Below, one piece after another: positions 6,552 to 25,282 of a stretch of 31,258 nucleotides of DNA. The DNA is from a virus (taxonomy: Duplodnaviria; Heunggongvirae; Uroviricota; Caudoviricetes), in IMG/VR virus record IMGVR_UViG_2718217862_000002; one strand, given 5' to 3'. The stretch's first letter is position 1. Each line of letters begins with the position of its first letter. Made by a program: the position numbers and the translations under genes. The notes below the pieces were generated by a model. It ran no database searches, had not been told where the DNA came from, and saw only the letters and a program-made list of their open reading frames with translations.

Positions 6552-7742
6552 TTAATTGCTGTTAACCGAGGTGACCAGATTTGCCAGGTATTTATCGGTA
6601 ATACGCTGGCGCAGGGTCAGGTTTTCAAGAGGAGGCACCGGGGTATAGTCGTAGTCGATATACAGTTTTCCGGCCTTGAGGGTTTCCGCATCGTTGGATT
6701 CTTCGCTGAACCAGCAGGTCGCATCCACGATATAGCCGTTTGTTTTCAGCTCACGGAATTTGGCATTGATGCCGTCAACGATGTCGCGAATCAGCGTTGC
6801 GGTGATGGGCTTGTCCACCGCCCACATGTGCGCCTCAGCCATCGTGTCGGCCAGCACCTGCGCGGTGCGGGTGTAGTTTTCAAAGAGGAACAGCGGGTCA
6901 TCGGAGCAGGTACGGTTACCCCAGAAGCGGAAACCGTCGCGGCGAATCAGCGTAGTGACGCCTGACTCGTTAAGCAGGTCAGCATCGGTGCCGGACTCCT
7001 GCAAATCCCAGAAGACGGATGCGCTGATGCCGGTAACACCGTTCACCCCGACATTGGACAGCGTTTTATGCCAGCCCTGCTCCTGGTCGATTTTAGCGCG
7101 CAGACCCAGCGCACGGGCGGTGGCATACGCGGTGGCGGTGGTACTGGTGACCGTATCCCATGCGAGGAAATCCGGCCAGATGACCATCAGCTCACGCTGG
7201 CTGAAATTCTGGCGGTAGGCTTTCACCTCGGAAATGGTTTTACAGCCCCATGCGCTGATATACCCGAAAGCGCGCAGCTTCTGACAGACTGATGCCAGTG
7301 CAACAGCCACCTCTTTGGTGTCCAGTCCCGGCACACCAAGAATACGCGGTTTAACACCGGTTACCGACTCCGCCGCCAGCAGGGCTTTCAGTCCGGTGTA
7401 CTGACCGTTTTCGTCGGTGGTGCCGATGATATTGGAAACGGTCTGCGCGAGTTTCGTTTCTTCGTCGTCGCCGGTGCCGTCTTCCACACGCACGACAACG
7501 GTGACCGGTTTTGACTGGTCAGCGATGGCCTGCAACGATGCTGCCAGCGTGCCTTTTTTACCGGCCTTTGCAATTGCGCTCTGCACATTGGTAATCAGCA
7601 CAGGTTTATTGAGGGGGAAGGTTTCCGCATCCGCATCGCTGGCCGTGCAGACCATGCCGACAATGGCAGTGGATACGGTGGAAATGACACGGGTGCCGTC
7701 GTTAATCTCCAGCACCTGCACGCCGTGATGATAGTCACTCAT
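6552..7742 (-). CDS. FI: Contractile tail sheath protein gpFI, 396 aa
   Basis: MSDYHHGVQVLEINDGTRVISTVSTAIVGMVCTASDADAETFPLNKPVLITN... recognised as P2-type sheath; size matches. Confidence 0.9.
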   Translation of the reverse strand: MSDYHHGVQVLEINDGTRVISTVSTAIVGMVCTASDADAETFPLNKPVLITNVQSAIAKAGKKGTLAASLQAIADQSKPVTVVVRVEDGTGDDEETKLAQTVSNIIGTTDENGQYTGLKALLAAESVTGVKPRILGVPGLDTKEVAVALASVCQKLRAFGYISAWGCKTISEVKAYRQNFSQRELMVIWPDFLAWDTVTSTTATAYATARALGLRAKIDQEQGWHKTLSNVGVNGVTGISASVFWDLQESGTDADLLNESGVTTLIRRDGFRFWGNRTCSDDPLFLFENYTRTAQVLADTMAEAHMWAVDKPITATLIRDIVDGINAKFRELKTNGYIVDATCWFSEESNDAETLKAGKLYIDYDYTPVPPLENLTLRQRITDKYLANLVTSVNSN

Positions 7743-7801
7743 CCGTTTAACTCCGTGGTTAATGGGTGAGTGATATTTTCTGTTGTGCCGGAGATGTCAG
7801 G

Positions 7802-7984
7802 CTATTTGTCCCGGTTGGCTAAGGGATGACACAATTTATTCTTTGTCGCTGATGAGGGGAATTTTTTATAGAGCGTGGACAGGCCAATATCAAAAATCAG
7901 CTCACATCCTGCGCACTCCAGCGCGTTACGCTGCAATTCCGTATTCTGGTCATTTGTTGACACGCGGACATAGCCAATAAGCAT
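7802..7984 (-). pseudogene. Serine DNA invertase (Gin/Hin/Pin/Cin family) remnant with an in-frame internal deletion; 60 aa instead of about 190
   Basis: MLIGYVRVSTNDQNTELQRNALECAGCELIF is the conserved invertase N-terminus with the catalytic Ser in VRVSTNDQ; it is joined directly to DIGLSTLYKKFPSS, which matches the extreme C-terminal HTH end of Gin/Pin. The catalytic domain core of about 130 aa is missing. Confidence 0.7.
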
Positions 7985-8011
7985 GATGGATCCCCTGAAT
8001 AAAAACCGGGG

Positions 8012-8521
8012 ATGATGCCAGTTAGCCGTAATCTCTGCATTTTCTTAAACGTTGGTTTGGGAGAAACGATAAATAAAGCCTCCGGAGCTATGCAGAAATC
8101 GGCTAATGGAGCTGATATTTCTGATGTATCAGCCTTCCGAAATGCGCTCCAGTTAGGGACCGCCGCAACACGAGATGTTGGAGCAGATAATGCCTCGAAG
8201 TTACTGGATTTAGACAGCTTCAGGTCAATGATGTCAGGGAATGGCTACATCTACATTCCATGCATTGCGACGACAGGAAACCCGGTGAAACTTATGTTGC
8301 AGTGGGGAACGGTGGCAACACAAAAGGGAGCTGATGCTGGATATGCCTTACCATTTGCTTTTCCCTATGCAGGCTTATTTGCGACCGGAAACCGTGGAAC
8401 ATCTGGCTACAATGCCGCGATGAATGTGCGTATTGCCAGCAGAACGCATATCAGTATTCAGAACTGGTCGCCATCCGGAGAGGGCACCGAAGATTGTTGT
8501 TTTATCGCGCTGGGGTATTAA
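8012..8521 (+). CDS. Alternate tail-fibre C-terminal (receptor-binding, Sv'-like) cassette lacking an N-terminal constant region; probably not expressed as a fibre in this orientation
   Basis: C-terminal part is homologous to the C-terminus of H on the opposite strand (shared GY.Y.P ... LQWG ... ALG[IY]-stop); followed by a tfa gene; begins at the hix-like site. Confidence 0.55.
   Translation: MMPVSRNLCIFLNVGLGETINKASGAMQKSANGADISDVSAFRNALQLGTAATRDVGADNASKLLDLDSFRSMMSGNGYIYIPCIATTGNPVKLMLQWGTVATQKGADAGYALPFAFPYAGLFATGNRGTSGYNAAMNVRIASRTHISIQNWSPSGEGTEDCCFIALGY
8042..8065. promoter_or_regulatory. hix/gix-like recombination-site remnant (TTCTTAAACGTTGGTTTGGGAGAA)
   Basis: Resembles the Hin/Gin crossover consensus (TTCTTGAAAACC..GGTTTTTGATAA-like half-sites) but with a shortened centre; sits exactly where the alternate fibre cassette begins, next to the invertase remnant. 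Confidence 0.35.
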
Positions 8522-8523
8522 GA

Positions 8524-8934
8524 ATGAATAAATTTTATAAAGGCTCTTTCTATCCGAAAGCACTAAAAGAGGTATATATCAGCGCCGGTTCATGGCCTGA
8601 AAATGGCGTTGATGTTGATGATGAAACAATGGCAATTTACACAGGCGTAGCGCCACAAGGCAAAACGCTGGGGGCTGATAAAAATGGTAATCCTGCGTGG
8701 ATTGATATCCCGCCACTCTCCGCTGAACAACAGATTATTCAGGCTGAACAGAAAAGAACGGTATTGCGTTCTATGGCTGATAAGGAAATAGTCTGGAGAC
8801 AGGATGCTTTTGATGCGGAAATCGCGACGGCAGAAGAAACCGCCGCGTTATCTGAATGGAAAAAATACCGGGTGCTGCTGATGCGCGTTGATACCTCAAA
8901 AGCCCCCGATATTCTGTGGCCTCCGCAACCGTAA
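8524..8934 (+). CDS. Tail-fibre assembly protein (Tfa / P2 gpG family), 136 aa
   Basis: C-terminus EWKKYRVLLMRVDTSKAPDILWPPQP matches the conserved Tfa C-terminal motif (lambda Tfa / P2 G type, WRQYRVLLNRVDTSTAPD.WP); ATG at 8524 three nt after the cassette stop. Confidence 0.7.
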   Translation: MNKFYKGSFYPKALKEVYISAGSWPENGVDVDDETMAIYTGVAPQGKTLGADKNGNPAWIDIPPLSAEQQIIQAEQKRTVLRSMADKEIVWRQDAFDAEIATAEETAALSEWKKYRVLLMRVDTSKAPDILWPPQP

Positions 8935-8961
8935 CAAAAAGCCGCTGTTTGCGGCTTTCTC

Positions 8962-10074
8962 TTATATCCCCAGCGCAAGATAGGTGTAGCTGTCAATATT
9001 GTTTGCCGTACCGTTTCCACTCCAGCCATAGAGACTAAACCCGGTCTGCGTGTAATTAACAGATGTTACATACCGATGGTCAGCTGTGATTTTATGCGGA
9101 AGAACGATAAATGGGGTGACATTAAACGGTTTTTTAAAGCTTACCGTAGCATTGGTCGCCTGAACCGAGCCGTGCCCCCATTGCAGCAGCAATCCTCCCG
9201 GTAATTCAAAGTACCCATCAGCCTCCAGTAACCGTTCTCCAAATCCAAGGTATGCGAGAAGACCAGCTACATCCTTTCCACTCAAATGAGTCAGCGTCTC
9301 ATCCAGTGGCTGCTTACCTGACAGCGCATTGTTAATGGTGGTACTGAATTTCGGGTCATTGTTAATGGCTGCGGCAATTTCTTTCAGTGTGTCCAGCGTG
9401 GCTGGCGCACCGTTAATCAGAGCGGTAATAGCGGCCTGAACAAACGCAGTGGTCGCAATCCGCGTGGTGTTATTTCCTGCGGCAGGCGTCGGCGCTTTTG
9501 GTTCTCCGGTAAATGTCGGATTATGTTTCTGCGCATACTGGGTATGAGGATCCTGTGCGGCAATGTGGTTTCTCATCTGGTCATCCACATACAGCCTTAA
9601 TTCCAGGACTTCATCATCCACGTATTTACGGGTCGCCAGTACCACCGACGGGTCGATTTTCAGCGTGATAGCTTCGGTATTCGTGACAACCAGAATCATG
9701 CGGATAGTCTGGGTACGACCACTGCCTTCCTGCAACTGCGGTTTGTACGTTTCCGGGCAGTTCGCCACCGCAATGAGTACGCCTTCATCATCATAAAGCC
9801 CAATCTCACGGATCCAGAATCCGCCCTCGTTCTCAGGGATGATTTGCTCCGCAATAATCTGGCTCTGGTTGTTCGGGTCAACACTCAGAAGATTCAGCGG
9901 CGCGATGCGTTTCTGGTTAATCAGTTTTGTCTGTGCCGGGTCTGGTGTCGGCAAGACACCATTCGCATCACCAACGGCCATTTGCGTCAGATTCAGCTTA
10001 CTGCCGAGCATCGTCGCGTTAGCCAGCCGTGCTGCGCCCTGATTAGTCAGAATGGCGTAGTATTTCACTGTCAT
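8962..10074 (-). CDS. H: Tail fibre protein gpH, 370 aa (P2 H-like N-terminus, divergent shorter C-terminal region)
   Basis: N-terminus MTVKYYAILTNQGAARLANATMLGSKLNLTQMAVGDANG...GGFWIREIGLYDDEGVLIAVANCPETYKP recognisably P2 H-like; position between I and the tail-fibre accessory region. Confidence 0.85.
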   Translation of the reverse strand: MTVKYYAILTNQGAARLANATMLGSKLNLTQMAVGDANGVLPTPDPAQTKLINQKRIAPLNLLSVDPNNQSQIIAEQIIPENEGGFWIREIGLYDDEGVLIAVANCPETYKPQLQEGSGRTQTIRMILVVTNTEAITLKIDPSVVLATRKYVDDEVLELRLYVDDQMRNHIAAQDPHTQYAQKHNPTFTGEPKAPTPAAGNNTTRIATTAFVQAAITALINGAPATLDTLKEIAAAINNDPKFSTTINNALSGKQPLDETLTHLSGKDVAGLLAYLGFGERLLEADGYFELPGGLLLQWGHGSVQATNATVSFKKPFNVTPFIVLPHKITADHRYVTSVNYTQTGFSLYGWSGNGTANNIDSYTYLALGI

Positions 10075-10682
10075 GCGTTTACTCTCAGGTTATCAATTAA
10101 ATGAATGGCCGAGGCCGGGAAATAATCCCCTCCGACAATAATGGCCTCCGGGGTGTAGGGATAAACCGTCAGGGCGTCACCGTGATAGCATCCCGCACCG
10201 GCAAAAATGTTGCCGGTTGTACTTAAACTGATAGCCAGTCCCGTCAGATGGCGGCTTGCCGGTTTTGCATCAGCAACTAGGCGCTCCAGCTCCTGATACA
10301 TTTCCTCGGTAATACCCTGCTCAAGCACGCCAACAACGATACGGAACGTCCCCGGCTCCTCATTGAGTTGCCACCACTCCCTCACCTCAATCAGATAGCC
10401 GAGCGGCTCCACCACACGCCGGATTGCGCCTATAGTGCCCTTATGGCAGTGAATGAAATACGCATCGCGGATAACAGCGCGTTTTGTCGCTTCCGGCCAT
10501 TTATCATCCCAGCGGTCAACCGAAAATGACCACGCCAGCCACGGCAGCAGATTTGCCGGGCAGGTGTCCGGGTTCCACAGCTCACGAATACTGACCGGCG
10601 TTTTTTCAATTTCCGCACAGGCTTTTGCAGCAGCGACTTCAAGCGGTGATGAGCCGGTCGGCAGCAGGCGCGAATCACTCAT
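10071..10682 (-). CDS. I: Baseplate/tail formation protein gpI, 203 aa
   Basis: Synteny (between J and H) and sequence recognition. Confidence 0.8.
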   Translation of the reverse strand: MSDSRLLPTGSSPLEVAAAKACAEIEKTPVSIRELWNPDTCPANLLPWLAWSFSVDRWDDKWPEATKRAVIRDAYFIHCHKGTIGAIRRVVEPLGYLIEVREWWQLNEEPGTFRIVVGVLEQGITEEMYQELERLVADAKPASRHLTGLAISLSTTGNIFAGAGCYHGDALTVYPYTPEAIIVGGDYFPASAIHLIDNLRVNA

Positions 10683-22229: not shown

Positions 22230-23351
22230 ATGATTGCTGATTCAGAAATACTTTATGTTCCGCTAGATGATTTGGAACTTGACACAGAAAACCCAAGACT
22301 TCCTGAAGGCGTGTCTCGTGACCAATTGGGAATGATTAACTACATAGCAACCTCAACATCTATCGAAGACCTAATGAGTGCTATTGCGGAAAATGGTTTT
22401 TTCCCTGGAGAACCATTGATTGTCATTCCTGATAGTGGAGCGCCGGGGAAGTACATTGTAGTTGAAGGAAACCGTCGCCTATCCGCGGTCAAATTATTAC
22501 GCGATCCGACACTATGTGAAAATCCAAGTGCTCGACTACGAGAAATTGCATCAAATGCAAAACATACGGTCGATCGTGTTCCTGTCATTGAGCGCCAAAC
22601 AAGAGAAGAGATTCTTCCGTACCTTGGTTTCAGACATATTACTGGTGTCAAACAATGGGAACCCTTATCAAAAGCTCGATATATTAAACAGCTTTTTGAT
22701 TATACCAATGCAAATCTGGATCCAATGCTACGCTACTATGAGGTTGCCAGAGCTATTGGCAGTCGTAGGGATCATATCAAGCGTAACCTAGACGCTTTAG
22801 CGGTGTATGAAATCATTAAAAAAAATGATTTTTATGGTATTGAAAAGCTAGATGAAGAAACGATTAAATTTTCAGTATTATCAACAGCACTTGCTGATGA
22901 GCGGTTAGGCCAGTTTGTCGGAGTTTCAATCGAAGACGATGGAGACACAATACCAAGTCATCCTATCATCAATTCTAAGAGTTTAAAGAACAAAGAAATA
23001 AAAGAACTAACTGAATGGTTATATAAAAAAGGCGAGGATAAAAAAACTCGTGTAGGAGAATCACGTAATTTAAGAGAACTAGCTGCTGTTGTAAGTAGCC
23101 CTAAGGCATTGGAGCAATTCCGAATGGGGGCTCCACTCGCAGTTGCCTATCAATTGACATCTGATATTACTAAGGACTTTCTCCAGTTACTTTATCAAGT
23201 TGAAGCAGCTTTGATAGATGCAGCAGGCATGGTTGCCACGGTAGAGTATGATAGACAGGCCCATGAAGTAGCACGAAGAATCAATAAACATATTAAGCTT
23301 ATAGGTTCTGAAATAGCAGAGAAAAATAGCAGAGGTGATGATGACTTTTGA
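22230..23351 (+). CDS. ParB/Srx-like (ParB N-terminal nuclease/NTPase-fold) domain protein, about 373 aa; cargo gene 1
   Basis: N-terminal region ILYVPLDDLELDTENPRL ... LMSAIAENGFFPGEPLIVIP ... KYIVVEGNRRLSAVKLL follows the ParB-box pattern (NPR motif, then the G-x-R-R arginine motif). ATG at 22230 preceded by GGAG; the ORF-track start at 22191 is a TTG. AT-rich codon usage unlike the phage backbone. Confidence 0.7.
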   Translation: MIADSEILYVPLDDLELDTENPRLPEGVSRDQLGMINYIATSTSIEDLMSAIAENGFFPGEPLIVIPDSGAPGKYIVVEGNRRLSAVKLLRDPTLCENPSARLREIASNAKHTVDRVPVIERQTREEILPYLGFRHITGVKQWEPLSKARYIKQLFDYTNANLDPMLRYYEVARAIGSRRDHIKRNLDALAVYEIIKKNDFYGIEKLDEETIKFSVLSTALADERLGQFVGVSIEDDGDTIPSHPIINSKSLKNKEIKELTEWLYKKGEDKKTRVGESRNLRELAAVVSSPKALEQFRMGAPLAVAYQLTSDITKDFLQLLYQVEAALIDAAGMVATVEYDRQAHEVARRINKHIKLIGSEIAEKNSRGDDDF

Positions 23352-24330
23352 AGTAGGAGTTATGCATCCCAACTCTCCTCATTTGTTTGCAGATTTAGCC
23401 GAGTTACTCACGGTAATTAATTATACCGGACGTAACTCACTACATAAAAATGATTTAGATTCAGTAAGAAAATTCGGCATAACAAGCGTTGAAGAAATTG
23501 ATGAAGAATGTAATTCTGAAGAAGAAATTAATGGAGACGCTGAGAGAAATGATCGTTTTGAAGAGCAACTCGAAGATGTTTGGACACAACTCGAATATAG
23601 AGAAAGTGCTCTTGGCAAAATATATCCATTTATAATTTCAGGTGATGAGATAATTATTAAAGAAAATCTAAACCAACAACAACGAATATATGTTTTTCTT
23701 CTTTGCTGCTCTAGACTTAGATCCTTTAAGTCGATTAAAGGAGCAGCACAACGTTGGGCAAAGAGCTTTGCCAGAGTATGTAAAGTAGCAATGATTTCTC
23801 TCTTACCTGCACATGGCACCGTAAGAATTTTTGATGCTAACTCCGATGATAGGCAAAATTATTATGGAACAAATCTTCGGACAGCTCTACAAACTTTAGG
23901 AAAAGATCTTGGAGTTTGTAGTTTAAACACAAGGGAAATAAATAGAGCTCCCACATCTGGTGATGCCGGGTTTGACCTAATTGCTACAGTGGAATTTCCT
24001 GATGGTCAAACTAGCAACTATGGAATTCTTGGTCAATGTGGTGCACAAGAAACAGGGTGGCCAAGCAAAACATTAGAGGCTAACGTGTTAAAACTGACCA
24101 CCTATTTCCAAATTGCGTTCCAGCATCCATCAACAATGTTCACGCCTGTTTTCTATCGGGAAGCAAATGGCGAATGGGTAAGCACACACGCAACCGCTGG
24201 AGTATTATTATTAGATAGGTTGAGAATCATATATCTACTTGATAAGGCAAACCAATGGGAAGCGATAACTACCTCTGATTGGTTTCGCGAATTTGAGGAA
24301 GAGCTTTATACATTAAATCCAGAGCCTTAA
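23335..24330 (+). CDS. Hypothetical protein, 331 aa, no domain recognised; overlaps gene 1 by 17 nt; cargo gene 2
   Basis: Long ORF in the AT-rich island, start codons (ATGATGATG) overlapping the 3' end of gene 1; acidic stretch EEIDEECNSEEEINGDAERNDRFEEQLED near the N-terminus. Confidence 0.6.
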   Translation: MMMTFEVGVMHPNSPHLFADLAELLTVINYTGRNSLHKNDLDSVRKFGITSVEEIDEECNSEEEINGDAERNDRFEEQLEDVWTQLEYRESALGKIYPFIISGDEIIIKENLNQQQRIYVFLLCCSRLRSFKSIKGAAQRWAKSFARVCKVAMISLLPAHGTVRIFDANSDDRQNYYGTNLRTALQTLGKDLGVCSLNTREINRAPTSGDAGFDLIATVEFPDGQTSNYGILGQCGAQETGWPSKTLEANVLKLTTYFQIAFQHPSTMFTPVFYREANGEWVSTHATAGVLLLDRLRIIYLLDKANQWEAITTSDWFREFEEELYTLNPEP

Positions 24331-24337
24331 TAGCTTA

Positions 24338-25282
24338 TCAATCCCATAATTCTATTGGCAATGCCTTCGTTACAGCTTCAAAAAGCGGCGGAGGCACTGC
24401 ATTACCAACCACCGTGTATTTCATGCCAAGACTTGCAGCATTTGTTTCTGGAAACACTAGATCCTCAAACCCTTGTAATAGTGCAGCCTCTCGAAAACTG
24501 AATCTGCGAGCTCTCCGATCCTCAACAAATCTCCATTCATCAGTTCTTACTTTCTCCATCGGAGGACTGACAGGATGCAACGGCATATGCCTTGCATTAG
24601 CAACTATTGTCTTTGAAATTTGATCCCAATCCTGGCGACGATTGCGAGACATATAATACCAATGGAATCCCATATCATAAAATTCACCTTCTGGCCATTC
24701 AGGTAAATGCCCTATAGCATCTTTAATAGTAACATAGTTGACGCCAGTTGCTGGCCCATGAGTTGGCTGAGGGAACTCGTACTTAACTTTGAAATCATTA
24801 CGGATTCCTACGATAAATATTCTTTTTCTTTCCTGCGCTACTCCATATTCAGCCGCATTTAAAACTTTTGCGGAAACAGTATAACCTGCTTCAGTAAAAA
24901 CCCTGATCTGGTCAGATAACAAATGCTCAAAATTTTTTCTAACCATACCAGACACGTTTTCTACTATAAAAGCTTTAGGCTTTATATTGTTTAAAGCTCT
25001 AGCAAACTCTAAATAAAGAGTATTAATTTTTCGATCGGCTTTACGCGCACCACCCTGGCTGAATCCCTGACATGGATAACAACCTACCAGCAAATCAGAT
25101 TTAGGAAAAGTAGTTACATCAGCAATATTGCCTAATATGTAATCAGTTTCTGGATGATTGGCAATATAAACATCGCGCGCATACGGCAAGATATCGTTGG
25201 CCATAAGCACATCAAAGCCGGCTCTCAAAACCCCCGCATCGGAACCACCGCATCCAGAAAAAAGTGAAACTACTGTTGGCAT
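24338..25282 (-). CDS. DNA (cytosine-5)-methyltransferase, 314 aa; cargo gene 3
   Basis: Canonical m5C MTase motifs in order: FSGCGG (motif I, AdoMet binding), PCQGFS (motif IV, catalytic Cys), ENV (motif VI), QERKR (motif VIII). Convergent with gene 2, stops 8 bp apart. Confidence 0.9.
   Translation of the reverse strand: MPTVVSLFSGCGGSDAGVLRAGFDVLMANDILPYARDVYIANHPETDYILGNIADVTTFPKSDLLVGCYPCQGFSQGGARKADRKINTLYLEFARALNNIKPKAFIVENVSGMVRKNFEHLLSDQIRVFTEAGYTVSAKVLNAAEYGVAQERKRIFIVGIRNDFKVKYEFPQPTHGPATGVNYVTIKDAIGHLPEWPEGEFYDMGFHWYYMSRNRRQDWDQISKTIVANARHMPLHPVSPPMEKVRTDEWRFVEDRRARRFSFREAALLQGFEDLVFPETNAASLGMKYTVVGNAVPPPLFEAVTKALPIELWD

Follow-up and report, generated by a model that had tools for sequence, protein, structure and literature searches.

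The closest described counterparts of the locus reported here are invertible tail-fibre segments of the Din family. In the P segment of the Escherichia coli element e14 (sites pixL and pixR, invertase PinE), the crossover sites have an AA core and the fibre gene is joined in frame to alternative C-terminal ends, as is the case here. The constant part is StfP in e14 and gene H of a P2-like myovirus at the present locus; the latter further differs in that its invertase has been deleted and in that the outer half of the site in H, GGTATGCGAGAA, is unlike pixL. Invertible fibre segments have also been documented in P2-like prophages of E. coli, e.g., in EPEC E2348/69 (PMC4272514). Such P2-like loci with an intact invertase, namely those of EPEC E2348/69 and of four relatives fetched for comparison (L001, L002, L006, and L007), exhibit the same gene order (H, variable ends, tfa genes, invertase, sheath), the same site positions, and the same 68.5 bp between the site and the invertase ATG as the present locus, whereas the latter lacks invertase codons 32-168 and has an assembly-protein gene for only one of its two variable ends. 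Moreover, one EPEC locus comprises three sites and four states (PMC4272514), as opposed to the two sites found here.

In the G segment of phage Mu (Gin) and the C segment of phage P1 (Cin), inverted 26-bp sites of 12-2-12 architecture lie inside the fibre gene, and the P1 annotation places the Cin enhancer in the 5' part of the invertase gene; the present locus shares the former feature and retains a sequence equivalent to the latter. Likewise, the boundary of the Mu G segment is 67 bp from the start of gin, compared with 68.5 bp from site to ATG here. However, the Mu core is GA instead of AA, the Mu and P1 segments are 3-4 kb long with chaperone genes on both arms, and P1 cin is located on the other side, overlapping cixL, unlike the arrangement described below. 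Finally, PinQ of Qin has been shown experimentally to invert the e14 P segment (PMC12529663); a segment flipped by a recombinase encoded elsewhere is also what is proposed here, but the e14 target retains its own invertase, whereas the present locus has none. The system thus belongs to a known kind, the invertible fibre segments of e14/P2 type, of which it is an orphan form; its unusual aspect is that flipping continued after the resident invertase had been lost, with no chromosomal donor detectable for at least one genome pair.

Genomic Context and Gene Layout

The window, i.e., the whole stretch of 31,258 nucleotides that was analysed (IMG/VR record IMGVR_UViG_2718217862_000002), contains a P2-like prophage that occupies a position between fieF and cpxP in the E. 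coli chromosome and has 100% identity to strain Y5 (NZ_CP013483.1). In minus-strand order, the gene for tail protein I (10071-10682, minus strand) is followed by H, by a fibre cassette and an assembly gene on the opposite strand, by an invertase-like ORF, and by the tail sheath gene (6552-7742). As now assembled, the fibre gene H (8962-10074, minus strand) encodes 370 aa, in which the Pfam domains Phage_tail_fib (aa 1-150) and Gp53-like_C (aa 291-369) are recognized; it consists of a constant part (aa 1-276; 9247-10074, minus strand) and the variable part now joined to it, which carries the Gp53-like_C domain (aa 277-370; 8965-9246, stop codon 8962-8964, minus strand). The silent alternative C-terminal fibre cassette occupies 8054-8521 on the plus strand (155 codons and a stop, GLGETINK...IALGY) and also carries Gp53-like_C by Pfam; its own tail-fibre assembly protein (Caudo_TAP) is encoded at 8524-8934 on the plus strand (PF02413, E 2e-36; also called by RefSeq).

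The existing annotation of this region is misleading, in that the silent cassette is called a free-standing gene of 169 or 108 aa and the crossover sites are unannotated. The annotated 169-aa ORF (8012-8521), a "gp53-like domain-containing protein" in RefSeq, has its start in the spacer and is no stand-alone gene, its first ~14 codons being spacer and crossover site. The call varies with orientation, and 108 aa is obtained in flipped genomes (e.g., L019 8038-8364); the free-standing cassette protein is an annotation artefact of invertible segments. The variable end of H (8962-9246) has no assembly-protein gene of its own, and the sole tfa gene (8524-8934) points away from H in the window orientation, a hairpin at 8932-8964 separating the two. 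Relatives carry either two tfa genes (L001, L002, and L007) or a 77-aa ORF (L006).

Crossover Sites

To locate sites of the Din family, a position weight matrix (PWM) was built from 13 published 26-bp hix, gix, cix, pix, mix, and bix sites (those of Hin, Gin, Cin, Pin, Min, and PinB; PMC3241671, Table 3). On both strands of the window, the stretch 8040-8065 (minus strand) ranks first with 32.8 bits, against a window background of -41 +/- 11 bits; known sites obtain 21.4-37.0 bits from the same matrix. Its score lies above all 200 Markov-simulated windows, in which the mean maximum was 8.6 bits and the largest value 25.8 bits. The score is not circular, because 8040-8065 stays in the top two with a matrix lacking pix, lacking pix and mix, or restricted to hix and gix. 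The third-best match (22612-22637, 7.0 bits, in a ParB-like gene) was dismissed as background level in view of the null mean maximum, and the scan revealed no further Din sites above background in the window besides the two described here.

The minus strand of 8040-8065 reads TTCTCCCAAACC AA CGTTTAAGAAAA over 26 bp, with the outer half-site at 8040-8051, the core at 8052-8053, and the inner half-site at 8054-8065; two imperfectly symmetric 12-bp half-sites thus surround a 2-bp core, as in the Din family. It is identical to pixR of E. coli e14 at 25 of the 26 bases and contains the e14 P-segment repeat TTGGTTTGGGAGAA (PMC12529663) in full. Accordingly, 8040-8065 is a genuine full-length Din-family crossover site of the tail-fibre inversion type, and of the pix type by its resemblance to pixR. 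The preliminary description of this DNA, made by reading the letters without database searches, had pointed to the 24-mer TTCTTAAACGTTGGTTTGGGAGAA at 8042-8065 on the plus strand as a hix/gix-like site; the 24-mer is indeed there, in one copy in the window (zero are expected in shuffles, even with three mismatches tolerated), and it encodes FLNVGLGE in frame at the start of the plus-strand cassette ORF, as had been stated. The suspected likeness to invertase sites is borne out by the PWM rank, and the expected invertase-proximal position by the distance of 68.5 bp from the invertase ATG, which recurs in relatives with an intact invertase. The "shortened centre" ascribed to the site is not real: the start had been placed 2 nt too late, and the full site is a canonical 12 + 2 + 12.

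The partner crossover site lies inside H at 9235-9260 (plus strand) and is the second-best PWM match in the window (26.0 bits; next, 7.0 bits). Its plus strand reads TTCTCCAAATCC AA GGTATGCGAGAA, with the inner half-site at 9235-9246, the core at 9247-9248, and the outer half-site at 9249-9260. It is inverted relative to 8040-8065, and an AA core is found in both sites (read on the minus strand for 8040-8065 and on the plus strand for 9235-9260), giving the inverted pair with identical core dinucleotides that characterizes a Din segment. On the minus strand, 9235-9260 encodes LAYLGFGE, and the core falls within the codon of Leu276. The same pair of sites is present at the same positions in the four relatives with an intact invertase (L001, L002, L006, and L007), where the corresponding place in H reads TTCTCCCAAACC AA GGTATGCGAGAA. 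The two sites of the window have 19 of 26 positions in common; a repeat search over 7700-10200 did not report the pair, and the PWM was needed because sites that share only 19/26 positions offer no long exact seed.

It had been suggested that the partner site is gone, on the ground that the H region encoding NDPKFSTT is not hix-like. That region indeed has no PWM match; the conclusion is nonetheless refuted by 9235-9260, 37 codons downstream of NDPKFSTT, and a good partner site inside H is precisely the observation that the preliminary description had named as telling against its own view. Similarly, the parallel drawn between TINKASGAMQ in the cassette and TINNALSGKQ in H is unsupported, since the BLASTP alignment between the cassette and the C-terminal part of H is confined to their Gp53-like domains; the true counterpart of the cassette start in H is LAYLGFGE.

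Inversion and Its Products

The two sites delimit an invertible segment of 1195 bp (8053-9247). This segment was inverted in silico, and the resulting query of 2332 nt, spanning the invertase remnant, was compared with 5,426 complete E. coli genomes. The flipped query matches 12 genomes in a single piece at 100% coverage and 100.0% identity, and the window arrangement is fully matched in 6 genomes. Because both queries span the invertase remnant, all of these genomes (18/18; 12 flipped and 6 window-type) share the same 411-bp invertase deletion. Over the other 21 kb of the prophage, the deletion-bearing genomes show 100.0% identity, compared with 98.2% for the next relative; judged by this identity, the deletion-bearing copies are one prophage lineage. 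The orientation of an assembly is the consensus for that genome, and the flips are those seen between genomes, not within a culture.

For five fetched genomes, SNPs relative to Y5 (window orientation) were counted over 39.9 kb comprising the prophage and host flank. JX4-T is flipped and has 0 SNPs, the inversion being its sole difference from Y5 over the 39.9 kb, and AR_0137, also flipped, has 2 SNPs. OZ547064, in the window orientation, carries the 2 SNPs of AR_0137 and 1 more; P50, in the window orientation as well, carries the 2 SNPs of AR_0137 and 2 more; and the flipped 23CRST051 resembles P50 with 1 additional SNP, which is the only one separating these two genomes. Since the SNP pattern among the six genomes is tree-like and each clade contains both orientations, at least three independent inversions took place after the deletion. 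Around the exchange point, the sites are mutually identical only over TTGG (8052-8055; counterpart 9245-9248), so that the crossover is mapped to 4 bp containing the core dinucleotide. Inversion with exchange at the core is hence documented by 12 flipped genomes, 6 window-type genomes, and at least three events.

The flip in silico makes H read through in frame (...LAYL/GLGETINK...IALGY) into a protein of 431 aa, composed of H residues 1-276 and the 155-aa cassette end, i.e., an in-frame alternative to the present C-terminal end. The assembly gene (8524-8934) then comes next on the same strand, being co-oriented with H only after inversion, and a 431-aa tail protein followed by tfa is indeed annotated in flipped genomes. 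The fibre protein thus differs between near-identical genomes purely through orientation. The preliminary description had called the locus a fibre shufflon; a tail-fibre inversion system it is, but one of the two-site serine-invertase kind, not a multi-site Rci system. A shufflon would have more than two sfx-type repeats and the tyrosine recombinase Rci, whereas two sites and the remnant of a serine (Resolvase) type enzyme are found here.

These findings bear on the view that the locus is a relic, in which a decayed, centre-shortened hix/gix-like site has lost its partner and the cassette is permanently frozen. The truncated invertase gene and the lack of a PWM match at the NDPKFSTT-encoding region of H are in keeping with such a relic; however, the site is full length and matches pixR at 25/26 positions, a strong partner is present at 9235-9260, and the flipped form in 12 complete genomes, with at least three independent flips, refutes a frozen state. 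The probability left to the relic reading is negligible, and what is found here is not a dead relic but a tail-fibre switch of the classical Pin/Gin/Cin type that is complete and evidently usable.

Inversion might instead proceed independently of any invertase, through RecA-dependent or illegitimate recombination between short inverted repeats. Although the failure to find an invertase on the Y5 chromosome (see below) would be accommodated in this manner, the sites share 19/26 positions and their longest identical run at the exchange point is 4 bp, which is far too short for RecA-mediated exchange given its minimal homology requirements; moreover, every flip resolves within the 4 bp that hold the invertase cleavage dinucleotide. 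Recombination of this type is considered very improbable as the source of the observed flips.

Invertase Remnant and Putative Enhancer

In place of the intact small serine invertase (~190 aa, with a catalytic domain and a C-terminal HTH) that adjoins a Din segment, only a 60-aa remnant is present at 7802-7984 (minus strand), as delineated by alignment with intact relatives. Of a Din invertase of 197 aa, which is intact in the relatives L001 and L006, it retains residues 1-31 and 169-197, joined in frame; residues 32-168 (411 bp) are deleted, and with them most of the catalytic domain and of the DNA-binding domain. Judged by this domain content, the remnant cannot be active. The Pfam domain Resolvase is recognized on the 60-aa ORF at aa 3-35 only, RefSeq treats the ORF as a pseudogene, and the retained parts are 100% identical to the SCEC020022 copy. 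Overlapping BLAST segments and alignments place the deletion junction at 7890-7901 (no strand assigned), 12 bp that read GCTGATTTTTGA on the sense strand. This sequence occurs twice in the intact gene, in the codons for LIFE and LIFD, so that the deletion is of the microhomology-mediated kind.

A 12-bp direct repeat flanking the deleted part of the intact gene means that the identical deletion could in principle recur, and a second explanation dispenses with a trans-acting enzyme on these grounds: the flips would have occurred under an intact invertase, and the same 411-bp deletion would then have arisen several times independently, on segments lying either way round. The intact invertase that is not detected on the Y5 chromosome would be explained likewise. 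Against such recurrence, none of the 5,426 complete genomes (0/5,426) combines this haplotype with an intact invertase, all full-length matches carrying the deletion, nor does any of them hold this variable end of H in a P2-like context with an intact invertase; in addition, the SNP tree would require the identical deletion to have occurred independently at least three times in six genomes separated by no more than 5 SNPs in 40 kb. Recurrent deletion is, therefore, regarded as unlikely.

The deletion ends 5 bp past a stretch equivalent to the P1 Cin enhancer, which covers nt 19-90 of cin in the GenBank annotation of P1. By homology to that enhancer, a recombinational enhancer equivalent is fully retained at 7895-7966 (minus strand): positions 7966-7895 correspond to the P1 enhancer in a gap-free alignment with 57/72 identical positions, and 71/72 positions are identical to an intact relative. 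Two conserved G-N13-C Fis-like cores are found at 7949-7963 and 7900-7914, with centres 49 bp apart. The proximal core is 96.5 bp from the centre of the crossover site, in agreement with the ~100 bp given for Hin (PMC3798978). From its sequence, 7895-7966 would be expected to function as an enhancer in a Fis-dependent manner.

Direct evidence covers the two sites and the way they are arranged, the fusion in frame, the deletion, and the occurrence of both orientations in otherwise identical prophages, and 8040-8065 is very probably the invertase-proximal site of a two-state Din-family fibre switch that lost its own invertase by deletion and was later flipped in trans. In such a switch, a serine invertase would bind 8040-8065 and the inverted partner 9235-9260 in H, and strand exchange at the central AA/TT dinucleotide would flip the 1195 bp between them. 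In the window orientation, H residues 1-276 carry a 94-aa Gp53-like end and no chaperone gene comes with it; in the other orientation, the Gp53-like end joined to them has 155 aa and brings along its own assembly protein, so that the inversion changes the receptor-binding tip of the fibre. The resident invertase has been destroyed by the in-frame loss of 411 bp between direct repeats of 12 bp, and flips after the deletion would proceed in trans, using the retained enhancer equivalent and Fis.

Possible Origin of a Trans-Acting Recombinase

Because the flips post-date the deletion, a trans-acting recombinase is the simplest account of them, and the enzyme responsible was probably a Din-type invertase, or another Pin invertase, supplied by a different element in the same cell. 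Candidate donors were sought by a locus count, in which a unique 1-kb tag was concatenated with invertase centres and the matching places were counted per genome; counts with a 3.5-kb tag are ambiguous for several genomes, in which single-copy status is not established, and only cases with a clean baseline were used. By this tag search, a PinR/Q-type locus is present in the siblings TL-14, E-ge-1, 800, P50, and 23CRST051, and a P2-like or PinE-type locus in AR_0137, 005008, GYB01, OZ547259, and ES11. The same search revealed no PinR/Q-type, P2-like/PinE-type, or Gin/Cin-type locus on the Y5 chromosome. Three elements are missing from that chromosome as well, namely e14 (icd adjoins iraM), Rac (uspF adjoins ttcA), and Qin (ydfJ adjoins ydfI).

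On the Y5 chromosome, blastn with a tag-only control yielded one extra locus, a 168-bp pinH-like pseudogene fragment beside ypjA (1619624-1619791; L026 9625-9792). The fragment also occurs in K-12 C3026 and is, in both genomes, the sole locus matching the central part of the Din invertase gene; with ~134 nt matched at ~80% identity in one place per record, it can be mistaken for a functional invertase. The switch may be locked in Y5 now, since no intact invertase is detected on its chromosome.

In the P1-like phage-plasmid pEC-16-35-3 (L027), a copy of the cassette with 97.7% identity adjoins a Cin-like recombinase, and P1-like phage-plasmids are plausible as mobile donors of an invertase. The pair formed by Y5 and JX4-T, which has 0 SNPs in 40 kb and opposite orientations, shows no detectable intact chromosomal invertase. 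A wider proposal, namely that the locus is an orphan switch still flipping repeatedly by means of recombinases from unrelated transient elements (P1-like phage-plasmids, other prophages, and those of PinR/Q type), is given an even chance of being correct. If true, the host range of a phage would be set by other mobile elements co-resident in the cell. The fibre tip, and presumably the host range, of this P2-like prophage can change in lineages that no longer encode the invertase. The locus provides a natural case of cross-talk between mobile elements, as observed in the laboratory for PinQ and e14; this is a modest addition and involves no new mechanism.

As to the PinR/Q enzymes themselves, the proteins encoded by K-12 pinR (L017 9085-9675) and pinQ (L018 3623-4213) are 99.3% identical to each other, and PinQ and PinE share 38% protein identity (PMC12529663). 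The nucleotide identity of ~25-28% between PinR/PinQ centres and Din invertases comes from an ungapped, position-by-position comparison and is roughly at chance level. In the fetched Rac and Qin regions, no Din-like sites above background were found with the PWM (best, 9.7-11 bits), which is of interest given the reported inversion of the e14 P segment by PinQ.

Exchange of Fibre Ends and Other Cargo

In strain EC7 (L016, NZ_CP060963.1 3707050-3708254), the same 1.2-kb segment is found at 99.8% identity in an e14-like element, with an intact pinE alongside. One end of this copy is marked by an exact pixL and the other by a site that combines the variable end's own inner half with the outer half of pixR, a composition indicating that inner half-sites travel with the segment. 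Similarly, the cassette together with tfa (97.7%) corresponds to the S-fibre end of the P1-like phage-plasmid pEC-16-35-3. On the evidence of these sequence matches, fibre ends bounded by crossover sites are exchanged among e14-like, P2-like, and, for the cassette, P1-like elements. A reverse transcriptase of the retron Ec67 type is encoded near the segment in the e14-like element of EC7.

Elsewhere in the window, the portal and replication genes are separated by a cargo module (22230-25282), which encodes a protein with a ParB-N domain that matches PADLOC PD-Lambda-5_A (E 6e-29), an unassigned protein of 329 aa, and a DNA cytosine methyltransferase (DruM/MTase_II-like, E 1e-113). The module probably represents a cassette for anti-phage defence or modification located in a P2 variable region. 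Of the 5,426 genomes, only 84 contain the 1-kb stretch 23400-24399 of this module.
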